64,000 nucleotides of DNA, from the NCBI GenBank assembly GCA_963662285.2, contig CAXXMV010000006.1:672001-736000 (forward strand), in the 5' to 3' direction. Source of the stretch: a bacterium. Lineage in GTDB: Bacteria > Hinthialibacterota > Hinthialibacteria > Hinthialibacterales > Hinthialibacteraceae. Position 1 is the first letter of the stretch. Each line of letters starts with the position of its first letter. Position numbers and translations under genes: made by a program. Below are positions 1,167-53,303 of the stretch, in pieces. The notes under the pieces were generated by a model. The model saw only the letters and a program-made list of their open reading frames with translations. It made no database searches and was not told the origin of the DNA.

Positions 1167-1331
1167 GTCCTCTCCCCCTCCAGAAAAGGGCTAAGACAAT
1201 GTCATTAAGTTAACCGTGTTGTCCCCTCTCCCGCTGGGGTTGTAAAGGCCTGGGACATGGGTAACAGGTGTTCGGGGACATAGGTAACACATTCCCTGAG
1301 TGTATTCTAGCCTTGAAAGGAGGCGAAGAAT

Positions 1332-2498
1332 ATGCCCTGGAACGAGGTGGACCTTATGTCTCTGAGAAAAGAATTCGTATTGTTGAGCCAGCAAGAAGAA
1401 AGCAACATCAGCCAATTATGTAAACGGTTTGATATCAGCCGTAAGACGGGTTACAAATGGATCAAACGGTACAAAGAAGGAGGAGGCGAAAATCTCCAAG
1501 ACCGTTCCAAAAAACCCAATACTTGCCCTCATCAAACAGATAAGTCTATCGAGCAAGCCATTACAGAAAATCGCGAAAAAGGATGGGGAGGACGCAAAAT
1601 TCGCTCTCGTCTGATTCAATTGGGATACGAAAATGTTCCTAGCGCCAGCACTATTACTGCCGTGTTACGCCGACTGGGATTGCTGGATGAAAAGGAAAGT
1701 CACAAGCACAAAGCCTATAAGCGTTTTGAAAAAGATACGCCCAACGAATTGTGGCAAATGGATTTCAAAGGAGATTTTCCCACGCTCAAAGCACGCTGTT
1801 ATCCGCTCAGCATTCTGGATGATTGCACGCGCTTTGTTCCCGGATTATTTTCGTGCGCCAATCAGCAAAGGGAAACCGTGCAAGACTCCCTGGAAAGCGT
1901 GTTCAGGATGTATGGTATGCCTCGGGCGATGTTGATGGATAACGGAAGTCCGTGGGGAGGATGCAAAACCTGCGAATACACCAGATTGACAATATGGCTG
2001 ATACGATTGGGTATTCGCGTGTATCACGGTCGCCCCTACCATCCGCAAACCCAAGGCAAGGTCGAGCGATTTCACCGGACCTTTAAGCAAGAATTGCTGA
2101 TAAGGGAATCGTTTGTGGATTTGGAATATTGCCAAAGGCGGTTTGATGAGTGGCGTTATGAATACAATTTTGAGCGTCCTCACGAAGCCCTGGATATGGA
2201 TGTCCCGGCTAACCATTATACGTCCAGTCCTTTTGTTTATCCGGGAAGTTTGCCGGATATCGAGTACGCGCCGGGCAGCATTATCAGGAAGGTGCAACAA
2301 GGAGGTCGGGTGGCGTACCGTGGTGAAGATTACCGGGTGAGCCGCGCCCTGGTAGGATGCCCGGTTGCCTTGAAACCCGCTATGACCGATGGGATGATGG
2401 ACGTATATTTTTGCCGACAAAAAATCAAGACGCTCGATCTGCGTTTGAATGAAATCAAAGAAGATAACTTGGCAATCCAGAAAAAGGCGTCACAATAG
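1332..2498 (+). CDS. IS481-family DDE transposase
   Basis: MPW...SRKTGYKWIKRY HTH; WQMDFKG, MDNG and GKVERFHRT catalytic D-D-E; YNFERPHEAL. Confidence 0.95.
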   Translation: MPWNEVDLMSLRKEFVLLSQQEESNISQLCKRFDISRKTGYKWIKRYKEGGGENLQDRSKKPNTCPHQTDKSIEQAITENREKGWGGRKIRSRLIQLGYENVPSASTITAVLRRLGLLDEKESHKHKAYKRFEKDTPNELWQMDFKGDFPTLKARCYPLSILDDCTRFVPGLFSCANQQRETVQDSLESVFRMYGMPRAMLMDNGSPWGGCKTCEYTRLTIWLIRLGIRVYHGRPYHPQTQGKVERFHRTFKQELLIRESFVDLEYCQRRFDEWRYEYNFERPHEALDMDVPANHYTSSPFVYPGSLPDIEYAPGSIIRKVQQGGRVAYRGEDYRVSRALVGCPVALKPAMTDGMMDVYFCRQKIKTLDLRLNEIKEDNLAIQKKASQ

Positions 2499-2499
2499 A

Positions 2500-2686
2500 A
2501 ATTGGTTGGGCGAAACGGAAGCGGGCGCTGCAGGAGTGCAACCCGCCAGGGATAGCCGATCCGAGGTGCGAGGGATAATGCAGGAGGTGAAATATTCACC
2601 TCCTCCCTCTAAGCCAACCAATTATCCTGAGCATCTCTAGATGCCTAAAAAAAAACTCAAACAATAACCTGGGATAAATCCCGGTT
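2500..2686 (-). ncRNA. Candidate structured non-coding element in the 3' region of IS481 copy A
   Basis: Core 2509-2557 is homologous to 25046-25095 with compensatory changes. Stems 2500-2509/2614-2623, 2582-2591/2595-2604 and 2666-2686. Strand inferred from G-U versus A-C pairs. Confidence 0.65.
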
Positions 2687-2811
2687 TTGATAAAAAACTG
2701 TAACCCATGTCCCCGAACATGTGTTACCCATCTACCCGGTCTGTACAGGGGTTAGGGTGAGGGGGATATACAAAAACAACATAACTTAATAACATTAGAA
2801 ATAGGTGATGT

Positions 2812-3410
2812 ATGAAAAGAAATTCAGGCTTCACTCTAATCGAATTATTAATTGTTGTAGCAATCATCGGGATACTGGCGGCAATCGCCGTGCCCAATTT
2901 TCTCAACGCTCAGACGCGGGCGCGCGTGGCTCGGGTAATGGGCGATCACAAAGCCCTCGGAACCGCCTTGGAGATGTATTCACTGGATAACAATAATTTT
3001 CCATGGCCCATCGGAAACGGGCAAGGTCATTCGTCCTACTCGGTCTATATCGAATACCTTCACGAATTAACCACTCCCACTCCATATATAGCCAGCGTAT
3101 CCTACACCGATATCTTCAAACCCCAGCGTGAAAAAACCAACTGGTATCCGGATGACACGGTATTCAGTTATCAATATGTAAGTTACAACGGCAGTTGGGC
3201 GCGGTTGTCCAATGTATCTGCCGCCATGAATGGCACCCCGGTTACTGCATCTCCAGTTATGGTCCGGATCATGGCGCCAACGGGGTGGAATGGCATCCTA
3301 TCACCGGAGATTCCATCTCCCTTTACACATCCAGCAACGGCCTGGTCAGCAGCGGCGACATAGGCCGTTTTGGAGGATCAGTTAAATCACGCACCATCCT
3401 GGGTGGATAA
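2812..3410 (+). CDS. Type IV prepilin-like protein, frameshifted near 3197-3240
   Basis: G|FTLIELLIVVAIIGILAAIAVPNF methylation site. The family C-terminus (SYGPD...SNGLVSSGDI) is in the overlapping frame 3195..3410. Confidence 0.85.
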
Positions 3411-3510
3411 CCAACCAGTTCTTTCGCTAATCCAAGTAGACTCTCCCGCAATTTTTTGAGATAATCGAACTATTCGATTTATTATGCTATTTCTTATTGC
3501 AGGAGAAATC

Positions 3511-5604
3511 ATGGTCCGGCGAACATCTACTCATTTAATACTTCTGTTTTGCGGCTTCGTTGCATTCTCTTTCCTACTGGATATCCCTTGCTCAGCGCAG
3601 GAAACCGCTAATCCCATCATCTTCGGCGCCACTGTTGATTGGGGCTTGAAGCCGGAATTCGGGCCGAAGGTAGGAGAATATAAAGTTTCAGACCGAGTGA
3701 CTGTATCTGGCAGTGATGATAACCTTATTTACGATGTCTATGGGAATGGGGATAGCTTGGCCTATGCAAAAATATCAGAAGTCGAGTTCTTAACTCCAGA
3801 AACAAAAATCCTAGCAGAGCGAAAACTTGCGCCTACAGGTTATTCAGAAGATATCGATGTGTTTATAGAAGTCACGAACATATCATCATCTGCCAAAACA
3901 GTGAATATTATCGAACAACCTCCTGCTCGATATTCATTAAATAAGATCAGCCATAATGGAATAGTAGAAAACGGAAGCATTCTCTGGAATGTAAATCTTG
4001 ATCCGGGAACTACAATCTTACACTATACAGCTTATCCGTTTTCTTCTGATATTCGCAACGCAACGTTTCATGGCTCAATTGGATCTGATTCGATTTTGGG
4101 ACAAAACCAAACAATCAATTATAGAATTTACATAAGCAGTTTTAACTTCATGGTTTTTACAGGAATACCACTAGTCTTATTTCTGATTCATTTCTGTTTA
4201 TTCTTGTTTTATCCCCGCTTAAAAGAACATCTTTACTATGCTTTATTTCTCCTTTTCTCCGCAACAACTCACTATTTTTGTTTCAAATATCCCTTCATTG
4301 GTACTCATTCATACGAGGCAACCGCAAGATTTTACATTACACTTTTTTTTAACAGTCTACAATTTGTGATGCTTTTAATATTTTTTCATAAACATGTATT
4401 TCAAAAACTGACTTGGTATATCTGGATATTAATTATTCTCTTTATTTCAAAAGCATTATTCTATGCTTTAGCTCTCTGTATGCTGGTACATTTCCCCGAT
4501 CACGACTTTTCATATATAGTAAATTCTCCATTTTCTCTAGTGTTTACGAGTTATTATGCTTCTTTTCTTGTTCACATTGTGCTTGTTAGAGTACTTTTTT
4601 ATGTGTTATACAAGAAATTATCTGGAAGCCTATTTATCGCAATCGGTCTTTTTTTATGGTCCATAATAAACCTATGGGGATTTCTTAATTATTATCTAGA
4701 TTTTCCTGCTCCACCAATCAAATACCCTGAAATGGGAGGAATAGCGAACATACTGCTTCTGTTATCCATGTCAATATATTTGGCCTATCGCTTCGCCAAG
4801 ACGCAAGAAGAATTAGAAATCTTAAACGTTGAACTCGAAGACCGGGTTGAGCAGCGCACCCAGGACCTCAACACCATGAACACGGAACTTCAAGAAGCCA
4901 ACGCGCAATTAATTCAATTAGACCAAATGAAAACCCAATTCGTCTCCCAGGCTTCCCATGATCTACGCACCCCTCTTACCGCTATCAAAGGCAGCCTGGA
5001 TAACCTGCTGATGGGCATCGCAGGCGCTCTTAACGAAAAGCAGCAGAAGGTTATGACCCGCGCTACTTCATCAGTCGACCGCCTGACTAACCTGATCAAC
5101 GACGTCCTAGATCTAAACCGCATCGAGACCGGCCGCATAGTTCTAGAAAAAACCAATATCCCCTTCAAAACGCTGGTAGAAAATATTATTAATGAAAACA
5201 GTCCTGCGGCTGAGCAAAAGTGGATCACGCTTAATGCAAATCTTAGAGAAGAAATCAACCTTCACATTGATGGCGGCAAGATTGAGCGGGTGGTGGGAGA
5301 ATTGATATCTAACGCTATTAAGTACACCCCGGATGACGGTACAGTTGAAGTTGATATGTCCTGTGATGATGATATGCTTTCGCTATCGGTGAAGGATTCC
5401 GGTATTGGAATGACTCCAGAGGAATGCGCCAAAATCTGGGAGCGCTTCTACCGGACATCGGCATCACAAAAATTCGCCAAAGGTTCGGGGCTGGGGCTTT
5501 CGATTGCTAAAGAGTTGGTTGAGTTGCATGAGGGAACGCTTACAGTGGAAAGCGCGCAGGGTTTAGGAACCAAGTTTACTTTATCATTACCGCTAAATTG
5601 TTGA
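3511..5604 (+). CDS. Membrane sensor histidine kinase (7TM-type input region, HisKA, HATPase)
   Basis: SHDLRTPLT H-box, NAIKY, DSGIG, GSGLGL; about 7 TM helices; GGAG RBS before ATG 3511. Confidence 0.9.
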   Translation: MVRRTSTHLILLFCGFVAFSFLLDIPCSAQETANPIIFGATVDWGLKPEFGPKVGEYKVSDRVTVSGSDDNLIYDVYGNGDSLAYAKISEVEFLTPETKILAERKLAPTGYSEDIDVFIEVTNISSSAKTVNIIEQPPARYSLNKISHNGIVENGSILWNVNLDPGTTILHYTAYPFSSDIRNATFHGSIGSDSILGQNQTINYRIYISSFNFMVFTGIPLVLFLIHFCLFLFYPRLKEHLYYALFLLFSATTHYFCFKYPFIGTHSYEATARFYITLFFNSLQFVMLLIFFHKHVFQKLTWYIWILIILFISKALFYALALCMLVHFPDHDFSYIVNSPFSLVFTSYYASFLVHIVLVRVLFYVLYKKLSGSLFIAIGLFLWSIINLWGFLNYYLDFPAPPIKYPEMGGIANILLLLSMSIYLAYRFAKTQEELEILNVELEDRVEQRTQDLNTMNTELQEANAQLIQLDQMKTQFVSQASHDLRTPLTAIKGSLDNLLMGIAGALNEKQQKVMTRATSSVDRLTNLINDVLDLNRIETGRIVLEKTNIPFKTLVENIINENSPAAEQKWITLNANLREEINLHIDGGKIERVVGELISNAIKYTPDDGTVEVDMSCDDDMLSLSVKDSGIGMTPEECAKIWERFYRTSASQKFAKGSGLGLSIAKELVELHEGTLTVESAQGLGTKFTLSLPLNC

Positions 5605-5677
5605 CACGGTCCTGTTGTTATCTGACTTGTTCTTATGAAGTGATAAGTAAAATAAATTTTTACAGGAGGAAAGTTTC

Positions 5678-6898
5678 ATGAAAGTTGGAGTTGGATATTG
5701 TAATAAACAAGATGCTTTTGATTCTGGCAGAACAGTGGCGAGTGAAGCCATTCGTAGTGGTAATATAAATAAACCTGATATTGCCATAGCTTTTTGCAGC
5801 GGACAATTGAACCATGAAGAATTTTTGCAAGGCATCAAAGATACTGTCGAGGATACACCTGTAATTGGGGGTTCAACAATTGGAATTATTACTAATGATT
5901 ATTTATCATATGAAGACTACCCTTCAGGCGTCGCGATATTTCAATTAGATGACGTAAAATGTCAAATTGCCGTGTCTCACGGTCTAGATAAAGATGAAAA
6001 GTTAGCAGGATGTAATCTAACAAGGGAATTATCCAGAACACCAGAGGACAGACTTCTGCTTATGTTCTATGATTCAATAAAAGTTACCACATCCCCTGCA
6101 TCTCCTCCTGTTATGAATGCTTCTCCTCCACTAATTGAAGGAATTGAATCAATACTCCAATCAAATGCACCAATCATCGGCGCAGGATTAATCGGGGATT
6201 ATCAATTTAGTAATACAAAACAATTCTGTGGTTCTAATGTATTAGAGCAGAGTGTTGTTGGTGCGCTTCTTTCAGGTTCTGTTAATGTTTATCATAGTGT
6301 AATGCACGGGTGCTCTCCTATTGATGGTATATATCATAAAATAACCAAAATGCAAGACTCCGTTATCTATGAACTGGATGGAAAACCAATTGTAGAGATA
6401 ATTGATCAAATATATGGAGATCAAAGATGGAGAGAACAACGCCCTCTCAATCTTTTGACAATTGGAGTAAATTATGGTGAGAGATTTCAACATCAAGAAG
6501 ACGCTTATGTTAATAGATTGATTACAGGAATTCTTCCAGATTGCAGCGGCATTGGGATATTTGAGTCTGATCTTGAACAAGGCATGGAAATCCAGTTTAT
6601 GTTGAGAGACGGTAATCAAATGATTGAATCTGCCAGGAAAAATTCTGAAAGCTTAATGAAGAAGATTAACGATGAAGGGAAAATACCTGTTTTTGGTTTA
6701 TATATTGATTGCGCAGGAAGAGCGGCAGAGTGCTCAAATACAGAATCAGAAGAAGCAGCGGAAGTTCAACAAGTAATGAATAAATACGTAACTCCTTTGT
6801 TAGGTTTTTATTCTGGCGTTGAAGTTGCTCCTATTCTCGGAAAGAGCAAGGGGCTTGATTGGACAGGCGTCTTATTAGTTTTATCTAAGGACAAGTAA
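5678..6898 (+). CDS. FIST N/C domain signal transduction protein
   Basis: PVIGGST, IYELDGKP, DCAGR and GFYSGVEVAP motifs of the FIST_N/FIST_C domains. Confidence 0.88.
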   Translation: MKVGVGYCNKQDAFDSGRTVASEAIRSGNINKPDIAIAFCSGQLNHEEFLQGIKDTVEDTPVIGGSTIGIITNDYLSYEDYPSGVAIFQLDDVKCQIAVSHGLDKDEKLAGCNLTRELSRTPEDRLLLMFYDSIKVTTSPASPPVMNASPPLIEGIESILQSNAPIIGAGLIGDYQFSNTKQFCGSNVLEQSVVGALLSGSVNVYHSVMHGCSPIDGIYHKITKMQDSVIYELDGKPIVEIIDQIYGDQRWREQRPLNLLTIGVNYGERFQHQEDAYVNRLITGILPDCSGIGIFESDLEQGMEIQFMLRDGNQMIESARKNSESLMKKINDEGKIPVFGLYIDCAGRAAECSNTESEEAAEVQQVMNKYVTPLLGFYSGVEVAPILGKSKGLDWTGVLLVLSKDK

Positions 6899-6899
6899 A

Positions 6900-8600
6900 A
6901 TGGATGAAAAAGACGATTTAGCAAAAGAATTAAAAAAAAGATGCACAGAGTTAGAAAATAAGGCGGAATATTACCAAGGTATTGCAGAAAAAGCTGGACA
7001 AAAACGTTTAAGAGAAGTTGAACAATTAAACAGACTTATATCTGACCACAAGAAATCAGAAAAGGCGTTGCGGGAGAGTGAGCAGCATTTTAGACTTATT
7101 GCTCAATCAACCAATGACATTTTCTACGAGTGGGATATTGAGAGTGGAGAATTGAACTGGTTTGGTGAAATTGATATCGTATTGGGTTATGAGGCTGGAG
7201 AAATCCAACATACCCTGGAGGATTGGTTACGTTTAATTCATCCAGAAGATAGACCCCTACTTGATGACGCCGTTTTACTACACAAGGAATCAACAAAACC
7301 TATAGATTATATATACCGGGTAATGTGTAAAGATGGCTCAATAAGATTTTGGAACGATATTGGTTCTCCTATTTTGGATCAGGAAGGTAAACCAAAGAAA
7401 TGGATTGGCGGCATTTCTGATATCACCGAACGAAAAAGATCAGAAGAATTCTTAAGGCAAAAAACTATAATGGAAGCAGTAGGTTCCTTGGCAGGAGGAA
7501 TTGCACATGATTTCAAAAACATCCTTGCTGGGATATTAGGATATACTGAACTTCTTCAGATGGATTTAAGTAGTAGTAATTTCTCTCCTAAACGGATAGA
7601 GTCACGATTAGATAAGATTCTTACTGCAGGCAATCGTGCTAAAGAATTAACCTCTCAACTATTGGGATTTTCAAGACAGGGACAATATAGCCCCAAAAAC
7701 ATTGATCCAAATCTAATTGTTTCTGAAGCATATGGATTAGTAGAGCGGTTGGCGAATGTTGAAGGGCAACAACTGTCTTTTTCTGGAAATGCAGCATCTT
7801 ATATTTACGCTGATCAAACACAATTTTATCAAGTCATTCAAAATATTATGATCAATGCAATATATGCAGGCAGCATAGGTAATAAGGTTAGTGTTACCAC
7901 GGAAGATGTTGCTGTTAAGAAACTTATATCTACAACAATGGGAAACATTCCTGAAGGACAATATGTTAAATTGACTATCAATGACAATGGGACAGGTATT
8001 GAAGAAAAAGTTCTTCCGAGAATATTTGAACCTTTCTTTACTACAAAAGAAAAAGGCAAAGGAACAGGAATGGGGCTTGCAATGGTTTATGGAATTGTTA
8101 AAAATCATAATGGTTACATCTCTGTTGAAACAGATACATCACCAGAAAACCATGGAACTACTTTTAGTGTATATTTCCCTGCTGTAGAAAAAAGAGAAAT
8201 TGAAAAAAATGAATATAATGGAAATATTACAGGAACTGGAAAAATACTTATTATCGATGATGAACTTTCCATAAGAGAGATGGTTCAAGATGCTTTAGAA
8301 ATGAAAGGTTATGAAGTTGTTACAGCTGCTGAAGGCCAAGAGGGACTTGAAAAATTTAGAAGTGGTAGTTTTGATGTTGTAATTACTGATTTGATTATGC
8401 CGCTTGGAATGGATGGTATTGAATTATGCAGAGAAGTCAGAGAACTTGATCCCAACGTTCCTATCTATGCAATGAGTGGATATCATCAAGATAAAAGTGT
8501 TCAGCAAATGCTTAGTAAAGGCGCTACTGGTTTTATAGGAAAACCTTTTAAGTTGGAAGAATTATATCAAATAATAAGTTCTGCATTAGCCCTCAAATGA
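6900..8600 (+). CDS. Cytoplasmic hybrid sensor kinase (PAS, HisKA, HATPase, REC)
   Basis: IHPEDR PAS; LAGGIAHDFKN; FEPFFTTK...GTGMGL; REC motifs IIDDE, DLIMP, KPF. Starts 1 nt after the FIST stop. Confidence 0.93.
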   Translation: MDEKDDLAKELKKRCTELENKAEYYQGIAEKAGQKRLREVEQLNRLISDHKKSEKALRESEQHFRLIAQSTNDIFYEWDIESGELNWFGEIDIVLGYEAGEIQHTLEDWLRLIHPEDRPLLDDAVLLHKESTKPIDYIYRVMCKDGSIRFWNDIGSPILDQEGKPKKWIGGISDITERKRSEEFLRQKTIMEAVGSLAGGIAHDFKNILAGILGYTELLQMDLSSSNFSPKRIESRLDKILTAGNRAKELTSQLLGFSRQGQYSPKNIDPNLIVSEAYGLVERLANVEGQQLSFSGNAASYIYADQTQFYQVIQNIMINAIYAGSIGNKVSVTTEDVAVKKLISTTMGNIPEGQYVKLTINDNGTGIEEKVLPRIFEPFFTTKEKGKGTGMGLAMVYGIVKNHNGYISVETDTSPENHGTTFSVYFPAVEKREIEKNEYNGNITGTGKILIIDDELSIREMVQDALEMKGYEVVTAAEGQEGLEKFRSGSFDVVITDLIMPLGMDGIELCREVRELDPNVPIYAMSGYHQDKSVQQMLSKGATGFIGKPFKLEELYQIISSALALK

Positions 8601-8828
8601 TTTTGATTTAATTAAATTCTCTGTTGGTCATCCTGATGGATATCACTTGGGTAATAAAATAATTCTGGCTTTGTATAAGATACAGTAATCCAATTCAGAA
8701 GATGTAATAGGAAACAGAACGATGTCCGTTCCACTTTGATTTCGTAGAGGAGCGTTAGAAAAATCTAATTCAAATCATGTCTTGTATATTTGCATTGCTA
8801 GTGCATAATTACAAGATAGGAGATTGCG

Positions 8829-9143
8829 ATGTCAGGATATATTCAACGCTCACTGGAAGATGTGCTGAAACGTTCAATCAAAGAATTTCCCGCTGTCGTT
8901 TTAACCGGACCACGCCAATCGGGTAAAACAACACTCCTGAAACATCTTCTTCTCAAAAAATTCAAATATGTTTCTTTAGAACCGCCTGATGTGAGAAATG
9001 CTGCCATCGCGGACCCGCGAGGTTTTTTAGATTTATATCAACCGCCAGTAATCTTTGATGAAATTCAGAACGCTCCCGATTTACTTTTCTATATTAAGGA
9101 ACATATCGATAATAACCGAAATAAATGCGGGAAGGCTTCATAG
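8829..9143 (+). pseudogene. N-terminal fragment of an AAA_14/DUF4143-type ATPase
   Basis: Walker A GPRQSGKTT and Walker B FDEIQ are present; the ORF is truncated after ~100 aa. Confidence 0.8.
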
Positions 9144-9282
9144 GCTGCACCATGCTAAAAAAGACGTAATTATTTACGATTATGTTGATTCGGAGATCCC
9201 CATGTTAACCAGAATGAGTGAAAAGAGAATACGAGGTTACCGAAGCCTTGGATATGAAATAATGACTAAAACGAATTCATGA
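9125..9282 (+). pseudogene. C-terminal fragment of a DEAD/DEAH-box helicase (TOTE-type primase-helicase-like)
   Basis: AGRLHR (motif VI)...VIIYDYVD...PML.RM..KR.RGY..LGY; no N-terminus. Confidence 0.7.
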
Positions 9283-9298
9283 TAAGAATGAGCGAACA

Positions 9299-11731: not shown

Positions 11732-11781
11732 TTGATCTTAGATTAAATCAATCTCCTCATGGTATACCTCTTTTGCACAGG

Positions 11782-12195
11782 TCAGCCATTTGAAGTGATG
11801 ACAGGAGGGAATGGGGGTATTTTTTCTGTTCGAATATAATCACAGAGAGCAGACACGAGTGTACTGATAGGATTGTATCCTCGTCTTTTGAGTGTGCGAA
11901 AGATGGTCATAAGAACTGATTGAGTCAACGTGAAATGTAAGTGGAAATTGAGGGTGTCCAGAATTTGTGAAATCGTCATTCCCAAAGCGTAATGCCAATA
12001 GGCCGTCAGGCACAGCAATCGATTGCCGATAGCCGCCCTTGGCAAGGCGGTCTCGATTTTGGGTTCAACGTGATTCCGGCAGTGAGGACAATAATCCCGA
12101 TGAATGATATGTTCCGTCACTTCGGGAAAGTGGATGTCCCTAGACAGATGTTGAAATATATCATGGATTCATCTCATACTGTTTTAATTGTTTAA
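11782..12195 (-). pseudogene. Internally deleted IS66-family transposase remnant
   Basis: HRDYCPHC zinc-finger region and YWHY..G are joined directly to the C-terminal QSVLMTIFRTLKRRG.NP segment; the catalytic core is missing. Confidence 0.7.
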
Positions 12196-12421
12196 CAGTA
12201 GCAATAATCGATTTTTCTGAAATCACTCAAATATCGGTAAATATTTCCTCATCAAAAAACAGGTATTCCTGGTCAATTGAACCCGATTGTAAGGATGGTC
12301 TCATGATTCCAAATGTTATCATTTCAGATAATATTGTCAATAGAATTTTCCATCTATACAACCAGTACTCCACTAAAGCACTCTATTAAAATACTTCTTA
12401 GAAAGTTATCATAAAACCACT

Positions 12422-13087: not shown

Positions 13088-13186
13088 TAATATTATAGGA
13101 TAATATTTATATAACTTCGAAAAATGTGATAAAATATACTATACTATTAAGAGTTTGGTATCCAATACATTCTGAATAGGATAATA

Positions 13187-15403: not shown

Positions 15404-15469
15404 AATAGAATAGTTAACATAACAACGTTCTTATTCGCGTAATAAACAAGCATTTTTTTGAGAACCGCA

Positions 15470-15589
15470 CTAGTAGTATGACAGTTTCTTTTGTCAGGTA
15501 GGGTTCTGTGATTCCCCCTCACCCTAGCCCTCTCCCGGAGGGAGAGGGGACTTTGTTAGCCCAACATTATGAGTTGGTCATAGTACTAG
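15470..15589. mobile_element. MITE-like element bounded by CTAG and enclosing a REP-like hairpin
   Basis: CTAG at 15470 and 15586; imperfect IRs TAGTATGAC.../TACTATGAC...; the right half recurs at 51621-51695. Confidence 0.55.
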
Positions 15590-15613
15590 CAACATATGAA
15601 AATTTGAAGAAAA

Positions 15614-16723: not shown

Positions 16724-16838
16724 GCAACTCAATCAAGGGCAGAAAATACACTGCCCTTGGCACCCGCCTTGATTATACAACATGCGATTTTATATGAGCG
16801 TCTCTGGGATTACTCAATTACCTTTATTGTGTTTTATA

Positions 16839-17981
16839 TCAAGTAGAGACTGCCTGGAGTATTACTTGCAACGCGTTTTCGATGCGGTGCGGGTAGGTGT
16901 GATCTCTCAAAACTCTGGCGCGTCCTTGCTTGATAATCTGACGGCGCTCGTTGGGGAATTCTAAATAATAGGCAATCTTGTTTCTCAAATCCTCTATAGA
17001 ACTCAAAAAATAGCCTCCTTACCCGGATCGAAGAACCGTCCCGCAGCAGGAACCCAGTCGGATAGCAGAAAACCATCCGCCACTGGTGCATTGAAATCAC
17101 GCTGATTTAAGCTACCCCGGCATTGTATGCTATGAATATTCAAGTTGACCTTGGAAGAGGCAAACACTGAAGGCAGTTCATTAATGGGATCAACCGGACC
17201 ATAAAAACGCTCCAGTAGTGGGGAACCTTGCAGCAGAAATTGCCCAATCCTGATTACCGTAAATCCGTAAATCAAAATCCTGCAACGCTTCCAATACTTG
17301 AATCCGACGGCGATTATTGGCTTCCCAATAAAGGTAATGGGCGACGGTCGCATTGATGTTAATCTGTTTGCCCGGTTCGATAGGATTCTCTTCAGCGATT
17401 TGAAAGAAATTTTTGTCACGATTTTCCAATTGCAAATCAACTAACCGGTCGATATAAGACTGCATTTGCGTCGGTAATTGCGCTCTACGTTTGGATTGAT
17501 CAATCACTCCACCGACGAAAGATACATCACAAGCAAAACGTGCATCAAACGATCCTGCTGAATTTATATCACAGGCTAAAGGCAGGCAACCGCAGGCATG
17601 AGGATTATGCTTTGTGATAAAATCCAGATAGGTATCATCAAAACTGAAAACAAATTCATTCGCTTCAAAAGGCCGGTCAATATAAAAATGGGGATCATCC
17701 AGATACCAGACCCATTTTTTCGCGTCATGAGGACATTGGTTATCGGGGATTTCAAGATATTCGTATAATTGTGAAGCGGATTGATTAATCAATAGTATCC
17801 AATCAGGCTTATTTTCCAACAGGTGGCGGCGTAGTAGTGGTTTAGATGCCGGCTCCAATAGCGGAGCGCTGGCCATCCAGGTTTGCCAGCCATGAGTTTG
17901 CAGTTGCTGGAAGACGCGTCTTTTGAAAAGCCCGAATCCCCGGTCTTCACCATCGGAATATGTCCAAATTGATTTCGCCAT
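16839..17981 (-). CDS. CgeB-family glycosyltransferase, two single-base frameshifts
   Basis: WYLDDPH, DVSFVG, NLNIHS...LNQRDF, DHTY. Removing one base at 17243-17245 and adding one to the run at 17005-17010 restores a continuous paralogue of 30799..32637. Confidence 0.82.
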
Positions 17982-18096
17982 GTCGCACTTTCTGATATTT
18001 ATTCGATTCTGACTTGGTTATCAGCCGGGATTTGTTATACTTAAATTCTGAATTACTTTAATGAATGACGCCAAACATTAAACCTAGGGGCAATCT

Positions 18097-21000
18097 GTGA
18101 CCAAGTATATTCTCTCTACTATCCGTTTTTTATCCTCTACTAAACTAGCTGTTGTTCTTCTTGTCGGTTTAACCATTATATTAAGCATCGCTACTTTTTA
18201 TGAATCAAGCACCAGCGCATCCGACGCCCAACGCTTATTCTATAAATCTTTCTGGTTTAATATCCTTTTATTTCTACTCGGATTAAACGTATTATGCTCT
18301 GCTTTAATCCGTTGGCCATGGAAGAAACAGCAGATTGGATTTGTTATAACCCATTTAGGGATTATTCTAATTCTAATCGGTGCAGTGATTACCAGCACTA
18401 CCGGCATCGAAGGCCAACTAGCGCTGATTGAAGGCCAAACTGGCGATTCGATAACCATTCCTGAATCCGTTTTTACTGTAAAAGCGCCACGTTTGAAAGT
18501 CCAACAGGATTTTGATCCCTGGTTTTTAGAGTCACCTATTCCCGACGGGAAAGAGATTTTATTTAACGTCGATCAAACTGCTATCAACTGTTACATCACC
18601 AGATTACTGTTTAATCCAAGAGTAATCGAGCATGTCACCGAAAATGGCCATGTCGATAATCCGGCCGTTCAAATCAAGTTTCACCATTCAGGACAATCAA
18701 TGTCAGAGGCGCATGAGTGGCTATTGGCCAATTCAGCGCAACGCAACCAGTTGAATTTAGGAGCGGGTTCTATAGTATTCAAACGCATCCAATCTCAAGC
18801 AGAGATGCAATCCATACTTGATTCAACCAAGGCGCCGACCAACCAGTTTACCATTCTGCTCAATGAATCCAATCAACTATCTTACATATCATTCGATTCA
18901 TCGGGTAATGCCAAAAACAATCAAATAACTCTTGAAAAGATTATTGAAACGCCCTGGCCATCACTTAAAATTTCAGTGGAGAAGTTATATCCCAAAGCGC
19001 AAATAAGTCAGGAACTGATAGACGCCGATGATCAGATGGGGGGTGGGCATCCTCTTCCTTTAGCGCAAGCCCGAATTGAATACCAAGGACAATCGCAACA
19101 ACTGAACATTTTCTATAACAGGCCAGAGACAATTACTATCGCCGGTGAAACAGTAGAAATTGAGTTTGGCCAAAAACAGGTTCCACTAGGTTTTTCTATT
19201 CAGCTGATTGACTTCCAAGCGCCCCGGTATCCGGGAACCAACCGCCCTTCGCGTTTTCAAAGCCAGGTCAAGCTGATAGATAAATCTCAAGGAATTAATG
19301 AAGAACGTTTGATATATATGAATAATCCTTTGGCATACAATGGCTTTCTGGTATATCAATCCAGTTATGAGGAAGGTGTTAATGGCAGGCCGGATACTTC
19401 TATATTCAGCGTAGCGCTGGCGCCGGGAACGCCATTGGTTTACCTGGGTTCCTTTGTACTATGCTGCGGAATGGCTTTTATGTTCTTTAGAAAAATGAAG
19501 AGAAAACAAGAAAATATATTAACCAACCAAGGGCAAGGAGTAGGCTCTATCGTGAGACGCAGTCTTCTGCTCTTAGGATTGATGGCAATTATCATTCCTA
19601 CGGTTCAAGCAGTTGAAGTTCCCAAGAACCTTAATTACGACATTGTCCGCAGCATCCCCATTCTCGAAGGCGGACGCTATAAACCGCTCGGTACATTCGC
19701 TGGCGAATCGATGCAGGAGATCACCGGACGTTGGAAATTCAATAAGACTGATCCCATGGCGTATCTATGCGCCATGATGATTTCGCAGGAATGGTATAAC
19801 GAACCACTTATCAAGATTAATTATCATGCGCTCAAAGAGATGTTGGGCTACAAACCTGAGCGAACCCATTTCTCATATAAAGAGTTGGTATCCAATCAGC
19901 AATTCATGGATTTGGTCGAACGGATTCGGCAGCGCATGATGATGCATACTGAACTGACCCGTTTGGAAACTGAACTGACCATAGTTTATAACAAACTGGA
20001 ACTGTTTGATCAGATTCAAACCGGCGAAGCCTTAACAATCGTACCAGCGACAGGCGATGATGAAGAAAAGCCCTGGCTGCCAATTATTAAACCGTCGGAT
20101 TACCCGCAAGAGACGCAGCAGGAATTACATACAGTTTTTGTACATCTACTGGATGCCGCCAAAGCTGATGACGCGGCCATGTTCAATAAGTATGGATTAG
20201 AATTAAAGAATATCCTGGCTGGATTGAACAACGAACTTTACCCTCCAATCATAGATATAGAGCGTGAAGTGGTTTATAACAGTTCCCGGCCTTTTCTTAA
20301 ATCATGGATTTTTTATCTGCTCTCATTTCTAATGTTCCTGGCGTCGTTTTATTTTATGAAATCCAGGCCGCTTTATTGGGGCGCTATGGCCGTCTGCCTG
20401 ATCGGCTTCAGTTATAACACCTGGGGACTGATATTCCGGGGTATGATTGCGCACCGGGCGCCGGTCTCTAATATGTATGAATCGGTGATATTCGTCGGTT
20501 GGGGGATATTGCTGTTCGCTTTGATCTATGAATTGATATACCGCGCCAGATGGTTCGGCGCCCCGGCGTCGTTGCTGGGAGTATGCACCTTGATCCTGGC
20601 CGATATCCTGCCCTTTGATCCTAATATCGAACCACTGCAACCAGTGCTGCGCAGCAACTACTGGCTGATAACCCATGTTCTGACTATCACCCTGAGTTAC
20701 AGCGCCTTCTTGCTGGCTATGGGATTAGCGCACATAAATCTCGCCGTCTATTTCTACATTCCCAACCGTAAGGATTTACTCAATAATTTGAGTTTGTTCC
20801 TATACCGCATCCTGCAAGCGGGAGTAATTCTACTCGCCGCAGGGACGCTGCTGGGCGGGGTATGGGCGGCTGAATCCTGGGGGCGCTTTTGGGGTTGGGA
20901 CCCTAAAGAGACCTGGGCATTGATATCACTATTAGGATATATGGCAATCCTGCACGCCCGCTTTACTGACTGGATCGCGGATTATGGAACCGCGGTTTGC

Positions 21001-21216
21001 TCAATCATCGGCTTCTGGCTTATCCTGATGACCTGGTATGGGGTTAATTTTATATTGGCTTCGGGTTTGCATAGCTATGGATTCGGCGCGGGTGGAACCA
21101 TTTATATCATTATCTTTATGATTGTTGAAACCCTGTTCCTGATTATTGTTGGCGTTAAATATCTCATCGCTATATTTAAGGGTGGTTATTGTCTGAATCA
21201 GGATGACCAGGATTAA
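18097..21216 (+). CDS. ccsA: System II cytochrome c biogenesis ResB-like + CcsA (single ORF as assembled)
   Basis: THLGIILILIG, MNNPL.YNG...YQSSY (ResB); WAAESWGRFWGWDPKETW (WWD motif) and GLHSY. Confidence 0.9.
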   Translation: MTKYILSTIRFLSSTKLAVVLLVGLTIILSIATFYESSTSASDAQRLFYKSFWFNILLFLLGLNVLCSALIRWPWKKQQIGFVITHLGIILILIGAVITSTTGIEGQLALIEGQTGDSITIPESVFTVKAPRLKVQQDFDPWFLESPIPDGKEILFNVDQTAINCYITRLLFNPRVIEHVTENGHVDNPAVQIKFHHSGQSMSEAHEWLLANSAQRNQLNLGAGSIVFKRIQSQAEMQSILDSTKAPTNQFTILLNESNQLSYISFDSSGNAKNNQITLEKIIETPWPSLKISVEKLYPKAQISQELIDADDQMGGGHPLPLAQARIEYQGQSQQLNIFYNRPETITIAGETVEIEFGQKQVPLGFSIQLIDFQAPRYPGTNRPSRFQSQVKLIDKSQGINEERLIYMNNPLAYNGFLVYQSSYEEGVNGRPDTSIFSVALAPGTPLVYLGSFVLCCGMAFMFFRKMKRKQENILTNQGQGVGSIVRRSLLLLGLMAIIIPTVQAVEVPKNLNYDIVRSIPILEGGRYKPLGTFAGESMQEITGRWKFNKTDPMAYLCAMMISQEWYNEPLIKINYHALKEMLGYKPERTHFSYKELVSNQQFMDLVERIRQRMMMHTELTRLETELTIVYNKLELFDQIQTGEALTIVPATGDDEEKPWLPIIKPSDYPQETQQELHTVFVHLLDAAKADDAAMFNKYGLELKNILAGLNNELYPPIIDIEREVVYNSSRPFLKSWIFYLLSFLMFLASFYFMKSRPLYWGAMAVCLIGFSYNTWGLIFRGMIAHRAPVSNMYESVIFVGWGILLFALIYELIYRARWFGAPASLLGVCTLILADILPFDPNIEPLQPVLRSNYWLITHVLTITLSYSAFLLAMGLAHINLAVYFYIPNRKDLLNNLSLFLYRILQAGVILLAAGTLLGGVWAAESWGRFWGWDPKETWALISLLGYMAILHARFTDWIADYGTAVCSIIGFWLILMTWYGVNFILASGLHSYGFGAGGTIYIIIFMIVETLFLIIVGVKYLIAIFKGGYCLNQDDQD

Positions 21217-21237
21217 AGGATATGCAGGATTTCCGTT

Positions 21238-21317
21238 TAGGGCAACCATGAAGGATTGCCCCTACTTGTTATCGTTGGTGGATTTTTGATGGGTCGGTGA
21301 AGCGTGACCCATCCTAC
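21238..21317. repeat. Pair of GTAG-type REP-like palindromes
   Basis: GGGCAACC..GATTGCCCCTAC and GATGGGTC..GACCCATCCTAC hairpins ending in CTAC. Confidence 0.7.
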
Positions 21318-21413
21318 GCATTGGTGGATTTTTGGTTAAGGTATCTTATAGTGGTTATCATGAATAAACCTATTCATGATAACCACTTTTTTCGTCATTT
21401 CTTCCCTATTCAA

Positions 21414-23270
21414 TCAAAACATCTTCTTCAAGACGCCAACTTCTATGTTGCTGGGGTATTTTGCAGAGCGATATATGCTGTTAGTTACTTTGATGAAATC
21501 ATCTTGATCCGCTTCAAAAATATTGGGGACGTATTTCTGTGGATTGCGGTCGATAAACGGGAACCAGGTGCTTTGTACGTGAACCATGATCCGGTGTCCG
21601 CGCTTGAAGTTGTGTAAGACATCCCACAACTCAAATGATACTTCGGTAATTTCATTTGGGTTAAATGGCTTGGGTTTCTCGTAACTTTCGCGGAAGCGGC
21701 CCCGGAAGGCTTCAGCGCGAATTAAGGCTTGTTGAGCCGACTTTTCTTCCAAATCATCTGGATATACATCAATCAATTTTACGATCCAATCCGAATCGGT
21801 TCCGGTGGTGGAAACGAATAGATTGGCTTGGATGGTTCCAGCCAGCGTTACGTCTTCTTCGAGAATGTCTGTTTGATACACCAATACATCCGGCCTGCGG
21901 GATGCGAAGCGTTGGTCTTCTGTGTAAAAGGTGTTGTTTATAAACTGCGAATTATCCTTGGTATGGGGAACAGGTTTGGCGGGATCGCTGATATAAGAAT
22001 CAAGAGCCTTGGAACCTTCTTTGGGTTTGTTAAATGACAACGCCCCGTTTTTGTTGAAATAGAATTTGGTTCTCTCAGCCGATTTGGGCGGCCATTGATC
22101 GAAATGCCGCCAACGATTGGCGCCGGTTTCAAACATTAAGGCTTCGGGAAGGTTGAGTTCGCCTGCTTCATCTTTTAAGTAATGCTTAAAGAATTGTAAG
22201 TCGACGTTGTTCTTGAAATACTCAGAGGTGGGGAATCCAAAATCTGCATCGCCCAACTCGCTTCCCTGGTCGCCAAGCCATCCACCATGGCGCCACGGCC
22301 CCATGACCAGCATGTTAAAGATATCTGGATTCTCCTGCTCAATCTTCTCATAGGTTTTTAATGGCCCGAATAGGTCTTCGCGGTCGTACCATCCGCCGAC
22401 CACCATAACCGCCGCTTTGATGTTTTTGAGATGAGGCCGGATATTGCGTTTCTGCCAGAACGAGTCGTAATTGGGATGTTGCGTTACATTAGTCCATAAT
22501 TTGGATTTCTTTTCAAAATAGGATTTATCAACATTTTTCAATGGCCCTACATCCATAAAGAATTTGTATGCATCGGTTGTTTCGATTTCATAGATGGGAT
22601 CAGACCATTCATCAACAAGCCCTTCCCGTTTTTGCGGAACTCTATTGAGAAAGCCAAACCAATGATTAAGTAAATAGGCGCCGTGATGGTAAACATCATC
22701 CCAACAAAAATCCGTAACCGGCGCTTGCGGGGAGACCGCTTTTAAGGCGGGGTGAGAATCTATAGAACCGGCTGACGCGTAAAAACCGGGATAGGATATT
22801 CCCCATTGCCCGACTTTTTCATTATGATTGGGGATATTATTCAGGAGCCATTCAATCGTATCATAAGTATCAGTACTTTCATCGATATCTTTATTGCTTT
22901 TCTTGTCAGCGATATGCGGAGTCATGTGAACAAACTCACCCTCCGACATAAAACGCCCCCTTACATCCTGATAGACGAATATAAAGCCTTCTTTCTCGAA
23001 CGCGCCATGCGGACTGATAGCGCCCCGGTATTGATCGGGTCCATAGGGGCCAACGCTATATGGGGTGCGTAACAGTAATATTGGATATTTTTTATAGACA
23101 TCGTTGGGAGTATAAATTGAGGTGAATAGTTTCACCCCGTCACGCATGGGGATGCGGCATTCATACTTAGTGTAATTAGCGCGGATATAATCCGCCCGTT
23201 CATCCGCTTGAACTAAACCAAATTGCATACAAAACAAGAAGAGACAAACATACAAAACTTGTTTTTTCAT
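21414..23270 (-). CDS. CocE/NonD family hydrolase (alpha-amino acid ester hydrolase-like), secreted
   Basis: IPMRDGVKL, RTPY, QDVRG, GISYPG nucleophile, GPWRHG; signal peptide. Confidence 0.92.
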   Translation of the reverse strand: MKKQVLYVCLFLFCMQFGLVQADERADYIRANYTKYECRIPMRDGVKLFTSIYTPNDVYKKYPILLLRTPYSVGPYGPDQYRGAISPHGAFEKEGFIFVYQDVRGRFMSEGEFVHMTPHIADKKSNKDIDESTDTYDTIEWLLNNIPNHNEKVGQWGISYPGFYASAGSIDSHPALKAVSPQAPVTDFCWDDVYHHGAYLLNHWFGFLNRVPQKREGLVDEWSDPIYEIETTDAYKFFMDVGPLKNVDKSYFEKKSKLWTNVTQHPNYDSFWQKRNIRPHLKNIKAAVMVVGGWYDREDLFGPLKTYEKIEQENPDIFNMLVMGPWRHGGWLGDQGSELGDADFGFPTSEYFKNNVDLQFFKHYLKDEAGELNLPEALMFETGANRWRHFDQWPPKSAERTKFYFNKNGALSFNKPKEGSKALDSYISDPAKPVPHTKDNSQFINNTFYTEDQRFASRRPDVLVYQTDILEEDVTLAGTIQANLFVSTTGTDSDWIVKLIDVYPDDLEEKSAQQALIRAEAFRGRFRESYEKPKPFNPNEITEVSFELWDVLHNFKRGHRIMVHVQSTWFPFIDRNPQKYVPNIFEADQDDFIKVTNSIYRSAKYPSNIEVGVLKKMF

Positions 23271-23351
23271 GATACGGTTCCTCCTTTAATGTAATTATCC
23301 ATACTTTATTATGGTTCCATGCTGCATTTTCTTTTACAAGAGTGGTCATTA

Positions 23352-23484
23352 TCAACCCTCTCCTAACCTCTCCCAATCTTGGGAGAGGGATGTATGATTA
23401 AAGTGTTTTCAAGAACTAAGTCTAAACGATCTAAATGTCTATGTATCATAACCCCTCTCCCCCAAGCCTGGGGGAGAATTCAAG
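23352..23484. repeat. CCCTCTCCC/GGGAGAGGG REP-like hairpins (second copy split by IS481 B)
   Basis: Copy at 23352-23390 and an inverted copy from 23452 that continues at 25305-25317. Confidence 0.75.
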
Positions 23485-23578
23485 TGTATGAACCGGGCAC
23501 ATCCTTTACAGAATAAACCGGGCACATGGTTTACACAAGTCGATACTAAGAACCGACCAGAAGAAAGGAGTCGGTTCG

Positions 23579-24790
23579 ATGACTTGGAAGGAAAACAGTG
23601 CCATGGATGCAAGAATGAAATTTATTGCGGATGTCCTCCGCAAAGAAGACACACTAAGCGCCTTATGCCAAGCATATGGCATTAGTAGACCAACCGGATA
23701 TAAATGGATCAAGCGCTATCAGGAAGACGGTCCTGGTGGATTGGAGGAGCGATCCCGGGCGCCCCATACCCAAGCACTAGCCGTTTCTAAAGAGACCGAA
23801 AAAGAAGTGAAGGCTATGCGAAAAAAGTTTCCGCACTACGGTCCTAAAAAATTACGGGTGGAACTGAAAAAAAAGGATGCGACGAAGCACTGGTCGGCAA
23901 CCAGTACGATTGGCGAGATACTAAAACGCAAAAATCTGATTGTCAGCCGCAAGCAAAAAGATCGCGCCAAACCAAGTGGTGAAGCGTTAACCGAATTCGA
24001 CCAAGTGAACCGCGTATGGTGCGCGGATTTCAAAGGAGATTTTCTAACGGGAGACGAACATCGATGTTTCCCTTTAACCGTATCGGAAGGGGCTAGCCGC
24101 TATTTACTCTGCTGCCAAGGCATGCAAGAAACCAATGGCGCATTGGTACGCGTAATTTTCGAGCAGATTTTTCGCGAGTATGGTTTACCAGAAGTCATTC
24201 GAACGGATAACGGGGCGCCCTTTGCGTCGACCGGAATCGGAGGGTTAACCAAATTATCCGTGTGGTGGATAAAACTGAGAATTTATCCAGAACGAATCCA
24301 GCCGGGTCGGCCTCAACAAAATGGCCGTCATGAGCGAATTCACCGGACCTTGAAAGCAGAGGCCATTTCTCCACCAGCGCCAACGCTGCGTGAACAACAA
24401 AAACGTTTTGATCAATTTCAAAAAGTGTACAACGAAGAGCGGCCTCATGAGAGTTTGGGACAACGACCTCCCGCGCAGTTGTATCAACCCTCGCCGCGCG
24501 TCTATTCAGGTAAAGCGCCGAATTGGGAGTATCCAGAGACCATGCAGGTGCGCCAAGTGAAAACCCATGGTGAAATCAGTTGGCGAAGCAAGCATTGGTA
24601 TTTGGGGGAAGCTTTGGGAGGTGAATTGGTGGGACTAGAGGAATTGGAAGAGAATAATTGGCGCATTAGTTTGGGTAACGTGATTCTCGGTTGGTTGAAT
24701 ATGTCAAAAGGTGAGGTGGTGCGTGAATTGTCTTTGAGACGCATCAATCATCCAAAAGCAATCAGTCACCCGGCAGTATGTCCCAGGTAA
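23579..24790 (+). CDS. IS481-family DDE transposase
   Basis: SRPTGYKWIKRY; WCADFKG, TDNG, NGRHERIHRTLK; YNEERPHESL. Confidence 0.95.
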   Translation: MTWKENSAMDARMKFIADVLRKEDTLSALCQAYGISRPTGYKWIKRYQEDGPGGLEERSRAPHTQALAVSKETEKEVKAMRKKFPHYGPKKLRVELKKKDATKHWSATSTIGEILKRKNLIVSRKQKDRAKPSGEALTEFDQVNRVWCADFKGDFLTGDEHRCFPLTVSEGASRYLLCCQGMQETNGALVRVIFEQIFREYGLPEVIRTDNGAPFASTGIGGLTKLSVWWIKLRIYPERIQPGRPQQNGRHERIHRTLKAEAISPPAPTLREQQKRFDQFQKVYNEERPHESLGQRPPAQLYQPSPRVYSGKAPNWEYPETMQVRQVKTHGEISWRSKHWYLGEALGGELVGLEELEENNWRISLGNVILGWLNMSKGEVVRELSLRRINHPKAISHPAVCPR

Positions 24791-24916
24791 AAAATGAGCT
24801 AGGGAAGTATCAAGATGATGAATAATTCAGGTATTAATTTTCCTGAGATTGAATCCAGATCGTCTCTTTTTCGAGAAAATCAAAGAGCGCACGGGTGAAA
24901 AAAAAGGTGGCAATAT

Positions 24917-25100
24917 CGGGGGCGCCGCCCCCGTACCCCCGGAGTTTTTTTAGGCATTAGCACAAACTCCAGATAGTATGCAAAAAAAAGCAAAGGGACG
25001 GTTCTAAATCCGTCCCTTTAGCGACTATCCGTCGCCCGTGCACCAGGATATCCCTTGACAGGTTGCTCTCCAGCAGAGCCTGTCTCCGTTTCTCCTGGTG
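24917..25100 (+). ncRNA. Candidate structured non-coding element in the 3' region of IS481 copy B
   Basis: Stems 24917-24933, 24941-24947/24964-24970, 24972-24977/25024-25029, 24992-25001/25010-25019 and 25041-25048/25093-25100. Core covaries with copy A. Confidence 0.68.
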
Positions 25101-25304
25101 ATAATAACTATCGGATAGCTCGAAATAATCTGTAGAAAAAGAAGTAAAAAAACAGTTCTAGCAAGTAAGCAATTCAGAATACGTTGATATACCTGAAAAC
25201 GGATTATCTCTTTAAAAAAACAGATAAGTTGCCATAATTTGCGAGACAAAAGTGTAAACCATGTGCCCGGTCTAAAGTGTAAACTATGTGCCCGGTCATT
25301 CACA

Positions 25305-25368
25305 AGGAGGGGGTTGATTGGTCTAAACGCAACCCCCCTCTAACTCCCCCCAGGCTTGGGGGGAGAAT
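25305..25368. repeat. REP-like hairpin remainder plus an additional copy
   Basis: AGGAGGGGGTTGA completes the split copy; CTCCCCCCAGGCTTGGGGGGAG hairpin at 25344-25365. Confidence 0.7.
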
Positions 25369-53251: not shown

Positions 53252-53303
53252 AAGCGGTTATAGTTGAATTATCAGATTAACTTAAGTGGTATTAACGTTC
53301 CCC

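Follow-up and report, generated by a model that had tools for sequence, protein, structure and literature searches.

The stretch of DNA analysed here (in the following, the window) comprises 64,000 nt of contig CAXXMV010000006.1 (positions 672,001 to 736,000) from a bacterium of the class Hinthialibacteria and harbours two insertion sequences (ISs) of the IS481 family, here called IS-A and IS-B, both of which are found at short palindromic repeats of the host. On the evidence laid out below, IS-A and IS-B are probably recently active ISs, the DDE transposases of which pick their sites among approximately 530 extragenic hairpins composed of a C-rich and a G-rich arm.

IS-A (1241..2747, plus strand) is 1,507 bp long and has imperfect terminal inverted repeats starting from TGTA, the termini being TGTAAAGG on the left and CTGTACA on the right; two subterminal ACATGGGTAACA-like repeats are present at each end. 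Its transposase (1332..2498, plus strand; 388 aa) consists of a helix-turn-helix (HTH) motif, the IS481-type leucine zipper, and the rve DDE core, and reaches 266.8 bits against the NCBIfam model for IS481 (NF033577), which is above the cut-off of 224. The element is bracketed by a duplication of the target sequence GGGGT (1236-1240 and 2748-2752). Read from the flanks, the left half of the target hairpin (1222..1240) contains the C-rich arm and the loop, the last five bases of which are GGGGT; the right half (2748..2765) contains the second GGGGT followed by a G-rich arm of the third-arm type (GGGTGAGGGG). The site is intergenic, with a carbonic anhydrase gene and a pilin-like gene as neighbours.

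IS-B (23485..25302, plus strand; 1,818 bp) is bracketed by a 4-bp duplication, CAAG (23481-23484 and 25303-25306). The left part of its target (23450..23484) comprises an outer arm, an inner hairpin with the arms CTCCCCC and GGGGGAG, and a spacer of 8 nt, the last four of which are CAAG, the right part (25303..25317) the second CAAG and an outer G-rich arm (GAGGGGGTTG). The transposase gene of this copy (23579..24790, plus strand) is intact and encodes a protein of 403 aa, for which NF033577 is the top NCBIfam match (217.3 bits, the cut-off of 224 lying just above). Genes encoding an S15 peptidase and a Cache histidine kinase flank the element, which is likewise intergenic. The two transposases share 35% identity; each is encoded by a single open reading frame and matches rve and rve_3 as well as, above the respective cut-offs, HTH_28/HTH_32 and LZ_Tnp_IS481, in the order N-terminal HTH, then zipper. 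The assignment of both enzymes to the IS481 type, made in the original prediction from the window alone, is thus borne out by domain content and best NCBIfam match, and the flank sequences it quoted for the two empty sites proved correct on re-reading. In two public sequencing runs that contain this stretch and probably represent the source sample, read depth is approximately 113 within the ISs and approximately 7–8 in their flanks, as expected of multi-copy elements. A single read joint across IS-A in these data is not an empty allele; its shorter side comprises 22 letters and extra letters intervene between the two sides, which points to a paralogous repeat. Neither IS was found in 40 related genomes, where the single match had 38% identity. 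For a conserved protein of the genome, relatives were found at 46% identity at most, spread over many phyla.

The repeats into which the two elements are inserted belong to an abundant class. A scan of the whole 7.29-Mb genome for hairpins with arms of 8 bp (at most one mismatch), a loop of 2–10 nt, and a C-rich 5′ arm returned 530 loci with a C-rich left and a G-rich right arm, which together amount to 12,252 bp or 0.17% of the genome, and 106 loci of the mirror-image class. Roughly 400 of the 530 possess a third arm, a near copy of one of the other two, which is located on the left in 205 cases and on the right in 194. The centres of 439 hairpins (83%) are outside reading frames of at least 150 codons; such frames make up 86% of the genome. 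Six hairpin loci are present in the 64 kb of the window, so the repeats cover well under 1% of it, as predicted, and the intact copies that had been pointed out at 15514, 23352, 51621, and 53300 were all recovered by the scan. Those at 15514..15549, 51621..51657, and 53300..53334 are three-arm repeats of type 1 (CCCCTCACCC, spacer, CCCTCTCCC, loop, GGGAGAGGG) and are of the same kind as site A, in reverse; those at 23352..23390 and 25330..25368, the latter directly after site B, are three-arm repeats of type 2 and of the same kind as site B. In a third sub-type, of which 43 unoccupied copies exist, the inner hairpin is followed by 8 nt of spacer with CAAG at its end and then by the outer G-rich arm. 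Overall, approximately 530 hairpins are unoccupied, and those without an IS outnumber the occupied ones by about 30 to 1.

In being short imperfect palindromes which are extragenic and present in more than 100 copies, these repeats resemble other bacteria's repetitive extragenic palindromic (REP) elements. The two REP super-families carry a conserved tetranucleotide, GTAG or CGTC, at one end (PMC3733652). The repeats seen in this genome begin with C-rich arms and no such head is apparent in them, though this was looked at unsystematically only, for which reason they are best termed REP-like.

The genome contains 18 full copies of IS-A, which are 99.8–100% identical to one another. An exact 5-bp duplication is present in 17 of them, including the copy at C1:607710 when it is read through a nested IS-B, and at least 12 distinct duplication sequences are represented. 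By a strict automatic test, 14 of the 18 duplications overlap a C-rich hairpin, where 0.03 would be expected (binomial P = 4.4e-36); by a hand estimate, P is still approximately 1e-24 if insertions are taken to be confined to the DNA outside long frames (13.7% of the genome). A 15th copy (C2:919146), which has an irregular, imperfect duplication of 9 bp, is seen by eye to be in a hairpin, and the remaining three (C8:566204, C6:993229, C1:582792) are located in an arm or in a truncated or degenerate repeat. The flanks of the copies are therefore not random, and the prediction that a subgroup of IS481 elements targets REP-like hairpins is upheld. The arms, the loops, and the side of the third arm vary among the 18 copies, and each duplication corresponds to the local loop; since flanks and duplications differ from copy to copy and unoccupied hairpins exist, the hairpin halves are target DNA and do not travel with the element.

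The duplication is centred between 1.5 nt before and 4 nt after the hairpin axis; read in the orientation of the IS, this offset is positive in 11 of the 14 hairpin copies. Judged by eye, the third arm is on the left of IS-A in nine copies, on the right in five, and absent in four; as it may be on either side, IS-A is not tied to one orientation of the repeat. Across the reconstituted junctions, open frames reach 136 codons at most, bar one artefact caused by the nested IS-B. No junction is thus spanned by a frame of 150 codons or more, which agrees with the predicted “safe harbour” in so far as the result of insertion is harmless. The nested pair occupies C1:606204-609516; there, an IS-A copy residing in a hairpin loop with the duplication ATCTT is interrupted, 12–16 bp in from its left end, by IS-B. 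A solitary left end of IS-A (53 bp, 100% identical) is present at C2:869209-869261.

Of IS-B, five copies and an 89-bp right-end remnant (C1:1212869) are present in the genome. Four of the five copies have a 4-bp duplication (CAAG, CAAG, GGTG, and GTCC). At four loci, namely the window copy, C1:1154600, C6:136575, and the remnant, the right junction reads CAAG followed by the outer G-rich arm, and the copy at C2:75739 is inserted 7 nt past the inner hairpin of a type-2 unit. Five of the six junctions thus fall on a matching point 7–8 nt 3′ of the inner hairpin, and the left end points towards the inner hairpin in every complete case; counted by site, three of the five complete copies, plus two more right junctions, are repeat-targeted. 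No duplication accompanies the copy at C6:136575-138391. To its left is half a hairpin that breaks off in the loop, to its right CAAG with the outer arm, and it has probably arisen by recombination or through a deletion next to it. It had been predicted from the window that both elements occupy an equivalent position just 3′ of the hairpin, with the transposases in the same direction. For IS-B this is correct; IS-A is inserted in the loop or beside it, facing either way, and its site in the window resembles site B because the middle arm is degenerate there. The transposase gene of IS-B carries a premature stop in three of the five copies (C1:1154693, C2:75832, C6:136668), at codon 358 in two of them by the same change and at codon 326 in the other; it is intact in the window copy and at C1:607793.

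The habit of IS-A is found again among its relatives. Its transposase has 80 relative loci in many phyla, at 38–54% identity. An automatic search for IS ends, applied to 89 loci, left 51 with confidently placed ends; 19 yielded no ends and another 19 were dropped for weak inverted repeats, a length outside 1.2–1.5 kb, a short flank, N, or mis-set internal repeats. In 36 of the 51, at least eight of nine bases around the junction are paired, compared with 87 of 2,100 positions (4%) drawn at random from these loci; all nine are paired in 23 of the 51 and at 15 of the 2,100 control positions. The 36 loci come from 28 assemblies which are labelled with at least eight phyla; the record labels name Bacteroidota/Ignavibacteriales, Alpha-, Beta-, and Gammaproteobacteria, Acidobacteriota, Planctomycetota, Zixiibacteriota, Binatia, Chloroflexota, and an Acidimicrobiaceae. 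In the 23 loci that have a good stem and a duplication of at least 4 bp, the centre of the duplication coincides exactly with the dyad in 13 cases and is displaced to its right in seven and to its left in three.

Where relatives are present in several copies, their ends are of the TGTAYRGAC type with the hairpin halves outside. The stems vary between genomes, e.g., ACCCTCCCCGCC-type stems in an alphaproteobacterial metagenome-assembled genome (MAG) and CTTTTCTTTGC in Paraburkholderia, and copies of one IS within one genome may occupy hairpins with different stems, such as GGCAAGC and GGCAGGC in one Planctomycetaceae MAG. Intact, empty hairpins number 46 and 115 in two of the relatives' genomes, with none in the controls; a loose pattern for the Planctomycetaceae hairpins gave 86 matches as against 64 in the control and is not used as evidence, while the exact repeat does recur in the list. 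A freshwater metagenome contig holds a relative 95–99% identical to IS-A, the left flank of which is a C-rich arm with loop, on weak coverage (depth 3). The nearest relatives that bear a name are both from plasmid records, ISEc19 (yagA of E. coli K-12) with 46% and ISRm20 (S. meliloti) with 44% identity. In the one copy of ISRm20 examined, the 5-nt loop CTCGT is duplicated between the 7-bp arms CCCTGTG and CACAGGG. In the one copy of ISEc19 examined (locus L174, F′ plasmid record, CP4-6 region), the left end adjoins a C-rich arm with its loop and the first bases of a G-rich arm, and a three-arm repeat of a like kind is found just upstream; the right terminus is either absent or degenerate. A number of relatives (L003, L008, L045, L048, L049, L051, L217, and others) are flanked by near-identical CCCTCTCCC / GGGAGAGGG hairpins, which often have a third arm of the GGGTGAGGG type; the hosts of these relatives are Bacteroidota, Hyphomicrobiales, Chloroflexota, and Acidobacteriota. 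Hairpin targeting is, in sum, an inherited property of a part of the IS481 family and not a matter of chance.

For the clade of IS-B, 11 genome and 67 metagenome loci (31–60% identity) were collected, and the ends were set from a subterminal ACATGGGTNACA-type repeat which is common to this group and IS-A. A perfect 7-bp hairpin stopping 0–12 nt short of the end is present in five of 38 distinct left flanks, with an actual distance of 6–10 nt, compared with 19 of 2,080 control positions; at the right flanks tested there was none. Two further loci, L086 and L212, have a hairpin when inspected by eye. Two other kinds of flank were observed. A sub-group of IS-B relatives with GGTAAAATCCGG-like ends (L082-L084, L088, L185, L192, L195, L200, L204, L207, L208, L210, L219, L223, L226) is accompanied on both sides by arrays of ~22-nt direct repeats, which end in TTCCG(G) and resemble the element's own terminus. 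A relative on a metagenome contig, L182, has perfect inverted repeats, a left flank that ends in CTAGC and a right flank that starts with CCTAGC, which recalls the short target of classical IS481.

Besides their target, IS-A and IS-B share an RNA-like passenger element of ~165 nt, which is sense to the transposase gene in IS-A (2503..2666, plus strand) and antisense to it in IS-B (24935..25105, minus strand). The 3′ non-coding parts of the two ISs fold better than shuffled sequences (z = -4.1 and -4.9) and have a 50-nt match to each other, in opposite orientations (E = 5e-7), which corresponds to the 5′ domain of the element. A 62-nt model of this domain, R1, finds 25 copies in the genome, 18 of them in IS-A, five in IS-B, and two elsewhere (C8:756403-756464 and C8:769335-769397), and it has copies in 18 of the 35 genomes available for this small phylum. 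Loci L147-L173 carry the element as well. Over 29 distinct sequences, 16 of the 18 base pairs of R1 covary, a result as good as which was not obtained in any of 500 shuffles; in the full-length alignment, 20 of 30 pairs show compensatory changes. The element has G-U pairs on the modelled strand, and solo copies are preceded by promoter-like TTGAC boxes, which suggests that it is an RNA. It has a sharply conserved 3′ tail, which ends in ...AAAAAACTCA, and it also occurs 3′ of the transposase genes of IS3, IS21, and IS110 elements, mostly in antisense, or standing alone. A search of the non-coding parts against Rfam returned no family, with one match at chance level (E = 0.09).

How the transposases might find their targets can be outlined from the junctions. 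In IS-A, the ends are joined to the target strands with a stagger of 5 bp, on the hairpin apex or no more than a few bases away; this duplicates the loop and parts the two arms, one to each side of the element, whichever way round it is inserted. In IS-B, the stagger is 4 bp and joining takes place 7–8 nt beyond the inner hairpin's base on the 3′ side, just ahead of the outer G-rich arm, with the left end always towards the hairpin; the fixed side and distance are suggestive of an asymmetric contact with one hairpin. The palindrome is probably read by the target-capture surface of the transposase complex itself. In the IS-A clade, this could take the form of a two-fold symmetric contact to both arms, be it as duplex or as extruded cruciform, which would explain both the dyad-centred duplications and the insertion in either orientation. 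Transposition by copy-out-paste-in, which is established for the related IS3 family, is presumed for IS-A and IS-B as well, and the benefit to the elements may lie in a landing pad that is harmless and abundant. A more far-reaching version holds that the IS-A clade (IS-A, ISEc19, ISRm20, and relatives in at least eight phyla) reads the shape of a hairpin or cruciform and carries out symmetric transfers whatever the sequence of the stem, the sister clade of IS-B instead measuring a fixed 7–8 nt from a hairpin's base. This we regard as doubtful; if it were true, the choice of target would be set by DNA structure and could be redirected by supplying a hairpin.

Several observations weigh against target selection by the transposases as put forward here, or narrow it. 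Three to four of the 18 IS-A copies are outside a clean loop, and the centres of the duplications are spread around the axis. By the same rule as used in the scan, 25,306 loci of the genome can form an 8-bp hairpin, of which the C-rich class makes up 517 (~2%), and this is the only class used by IS-A. Shape alone is therefore insufficient; arm composition or sequence counts besides symmetry, so that targeting requires a palindrome of a particular composition and not just any hairpin, and a sequence motif common to the arms could be the real signal. Accordingly, the predicted “structure-directed” targeting holds with respect to the geometry, which is kept in relatives despite their differing stems, and does not hold as a preference for hairpins at large. 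Independent events of IS-B are few, and its five copies include one without duplication and one inside IS-A; in most of the wider IS-B clade no hairpin is adjacent. Among the relatives of IS-A, 38 of the 89 loci were removed before hairpins were counted and 15 of the 51 retained have fewer than eight of nine bases paired. An empty allele of either window site was not seen in the public reads. Furthermore, while the choice of sites, their geometry, the statistics, and the conservation in relatives are direct observations, it is from these that we infer that the transposase, and not a host protein occupying the repeats, does the reading.

The latter arrangement, in which the transposition complex is brought in or let in by a host protein on the repeats (for example, a nucleoid protein, gyrase, or a REP-associated Y1 transposase) or by their propensity to be single-stranded or extruded, is unlikely. 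Like REPs, to which host proteins are known to bind (PMC1525189, PMC3733652), the repeats are numerous and extragenic, a single compositional class of hairpin is used, and the genome contains six Y1_Tnp matches; however, none of five Y1 genes checked is directly flanked by a C-rich hairpin (two have one within 1.5 kb), so that no link of the repeats to these genes was seen, and one geometry maintained on different stems in at least eight phyla is more easily explained by the conserved transposase. Insertion at the apex is also what would be expected from attack on a folded single strand, and one may envisage, by analogy to IS200/IS605, that the target is a hairpin on the lagging-strand template at the replication fork. 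This is very unlikely, as exact duplications of 4–5 bp together with terminal inverted repeats mark staggered, double-strand DDE integration; moreover, IS orientation is unrelated to GC skew (10 of 18 copies for IS-A, three of five for IS-B), albeit this is a weak test on an assembly of eight contigs.

The shared passenger element was regarded as possibly linked to targeting in the original prediction, which would make it a guide or helper in target choice (RNA-assisted targeting), and it is true that both ISs carry it, that both target one repeat family, and that it is a strongly covarying, RNA-like structure. Such a role is highly improbable: no copy of the element turned up in 92 loci of relatives from the IS481 family, yet 36 of 51 of these reside in hairpins; it has opposite orientations in IS-A and IS-B and is also associated with IS3, IS21, and IS110 or with no IS at all; and complementarity to the repeats was not seen, on inspection without a formal test. 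As it is missing from relatives that still target hairpins, it is a passenger which plays no causal part, and targeting is independent of it. There is next to no likelihood that insertion was random and copies survived only in harmless places, for although all insertions are extragenic and 83% of the hairpins are outside long frames, the hairpins constitute approximately 1.2% of the DNA outside such frames and nevertheless hold 14–15 of the 18 IS-A copies, with the loop hit within a few bases. Copies 99.8–100% identical have also had little time for purging, and the dyad-centred duplications of the relatives amount to a positional rule beyond selection. Just as remote is the idea that the hairpin halves belong to the element (as longer inverted repeats, or as an IS within a miniature inverted-repeat transposable element, the two moving together) or were spread by homologous recombination via the flanks. 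The halves do form inverted repeats just outside the ends, and in some genomes they are near-identical between copies, so that BLAST alignments run into them; in the genome studied here, this is contradicted by the differing arms, loops, third-arm sides, and duplications of the 18 copies. A direct repeat separates the IS terminus from the arms, empty repeats prevail here by about 30 to 1 and are numerous in two other genomes, and recombination would have carried along one duplication sequence where at least 12 are seen.

If selection of hairpins by the transposase is indeed a habit of a whole clade across phyla, it would explain how IS481 elements attain high copy number without killing genes, and annotators would gain a rule for locating IS ends and empty sites. 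REP-like repeats would appear as shared landing pads, here used by two elements of one genome in two registers, and enzymology would obtain a single-protein DDE system for the recognition of palindromes or hairpins, with a natural contrast between dyad-centred and offset integration.

Classical members of the family, IS481 proper and IS1002 of Bordetella, conform to the same family model (NF033577) and have the same single-frame HTH-leucine zipper-rve architecture as IS-A and IS-B; they prefer a short NCTAGN-like sequence as target, with a duplication of 6 bp, rather than a hairpin. ISRm20 and ISEc19 are similar to IS-A in their TGT... ends, ACATGG-type subterminal repeats, and parts of a hairpin outside one end (ISEc19) or both (ISRm20), and differ from it in having no passenger RNA element and a length of ~1.27 kb. 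No paper on the target choice of either was found, those on ISEc19 merely listing its name, and a search of full-text literature (subscription journals and ISfinder/TnPedia being outside its scope) retrieved no description of IS481 elements targeting a REP, palindrome, stem-loop, or hairpin.

In other families, targeting of REP-type hairpins is already established for some elements; those listed as REP-associated belong to the IS3, IS110, IS4, IS256, and IS5 families (Tobes and Pareja 2006, PMC1525189), and “IS481” does not occur in that text. In the terms used there (PMC1525189), both elements display a “type 1 association”: for IS-A, the strict test gives 14 of 18 copies and inspection by eye 15, the three that remain being in truncated or degenerate repeats, and for IS-B the count is three of five complete sites and two additional right junctions. 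For ISPpu9, ISPpu10, ISPa11, ISRm19, and IS621 of the IS110 family, as well as ISRm22 of the IS4 family, REPs are interrupted at a constant position by all copies or almost all (PMC1525189). ISPpu9 has a small-RNA gene downstream of its transposase gene, of which extra solo copies exist, and is similar in this to the elements described here with their passenger (PMC12288879). The enzymes of the IS110 family are DEDD recombinases guided by a bridge RNA (PMC11208160), and the elements are without typical inverted repeats or duplications, whereas the junctions of IS-A and IS-B are those of DDE integration with staggered cuts. Terminator-like hairpins have also been described upstream of ISs in general (preprint 10.1101/2025.07.22.666184).

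Close parallels are found in the IS3 family, where IS1397, ISKpn1, and ISPsy8 insert into the palindromic units or REPs of enterobacteria and Pseudomonas syringae. ISPsy8 has all five of its copies at the symmetry axis, with a 3-bp repeat (PMC1525189). Like IS-A, these three encode a transposase of the DDE (rve) type with HTH and leucine zipper at the N-terminus and insert at the axis or in the loop of an extragenic palindrome with a short duplication, and in common with IS-A and IS-B nearly all their copies are in repeats. They differ in that, as members of another family, they have two frames and a frameshift, whereas the transposases of IS-A and IS-B are encoded in a single frame, and further in the size of the duplication (5 bp for IS-A, 4 bp for IS-B), in the position of IS-B beside the hairpin, and in the extent of the habit, which is here common to a clade found in many phyla.

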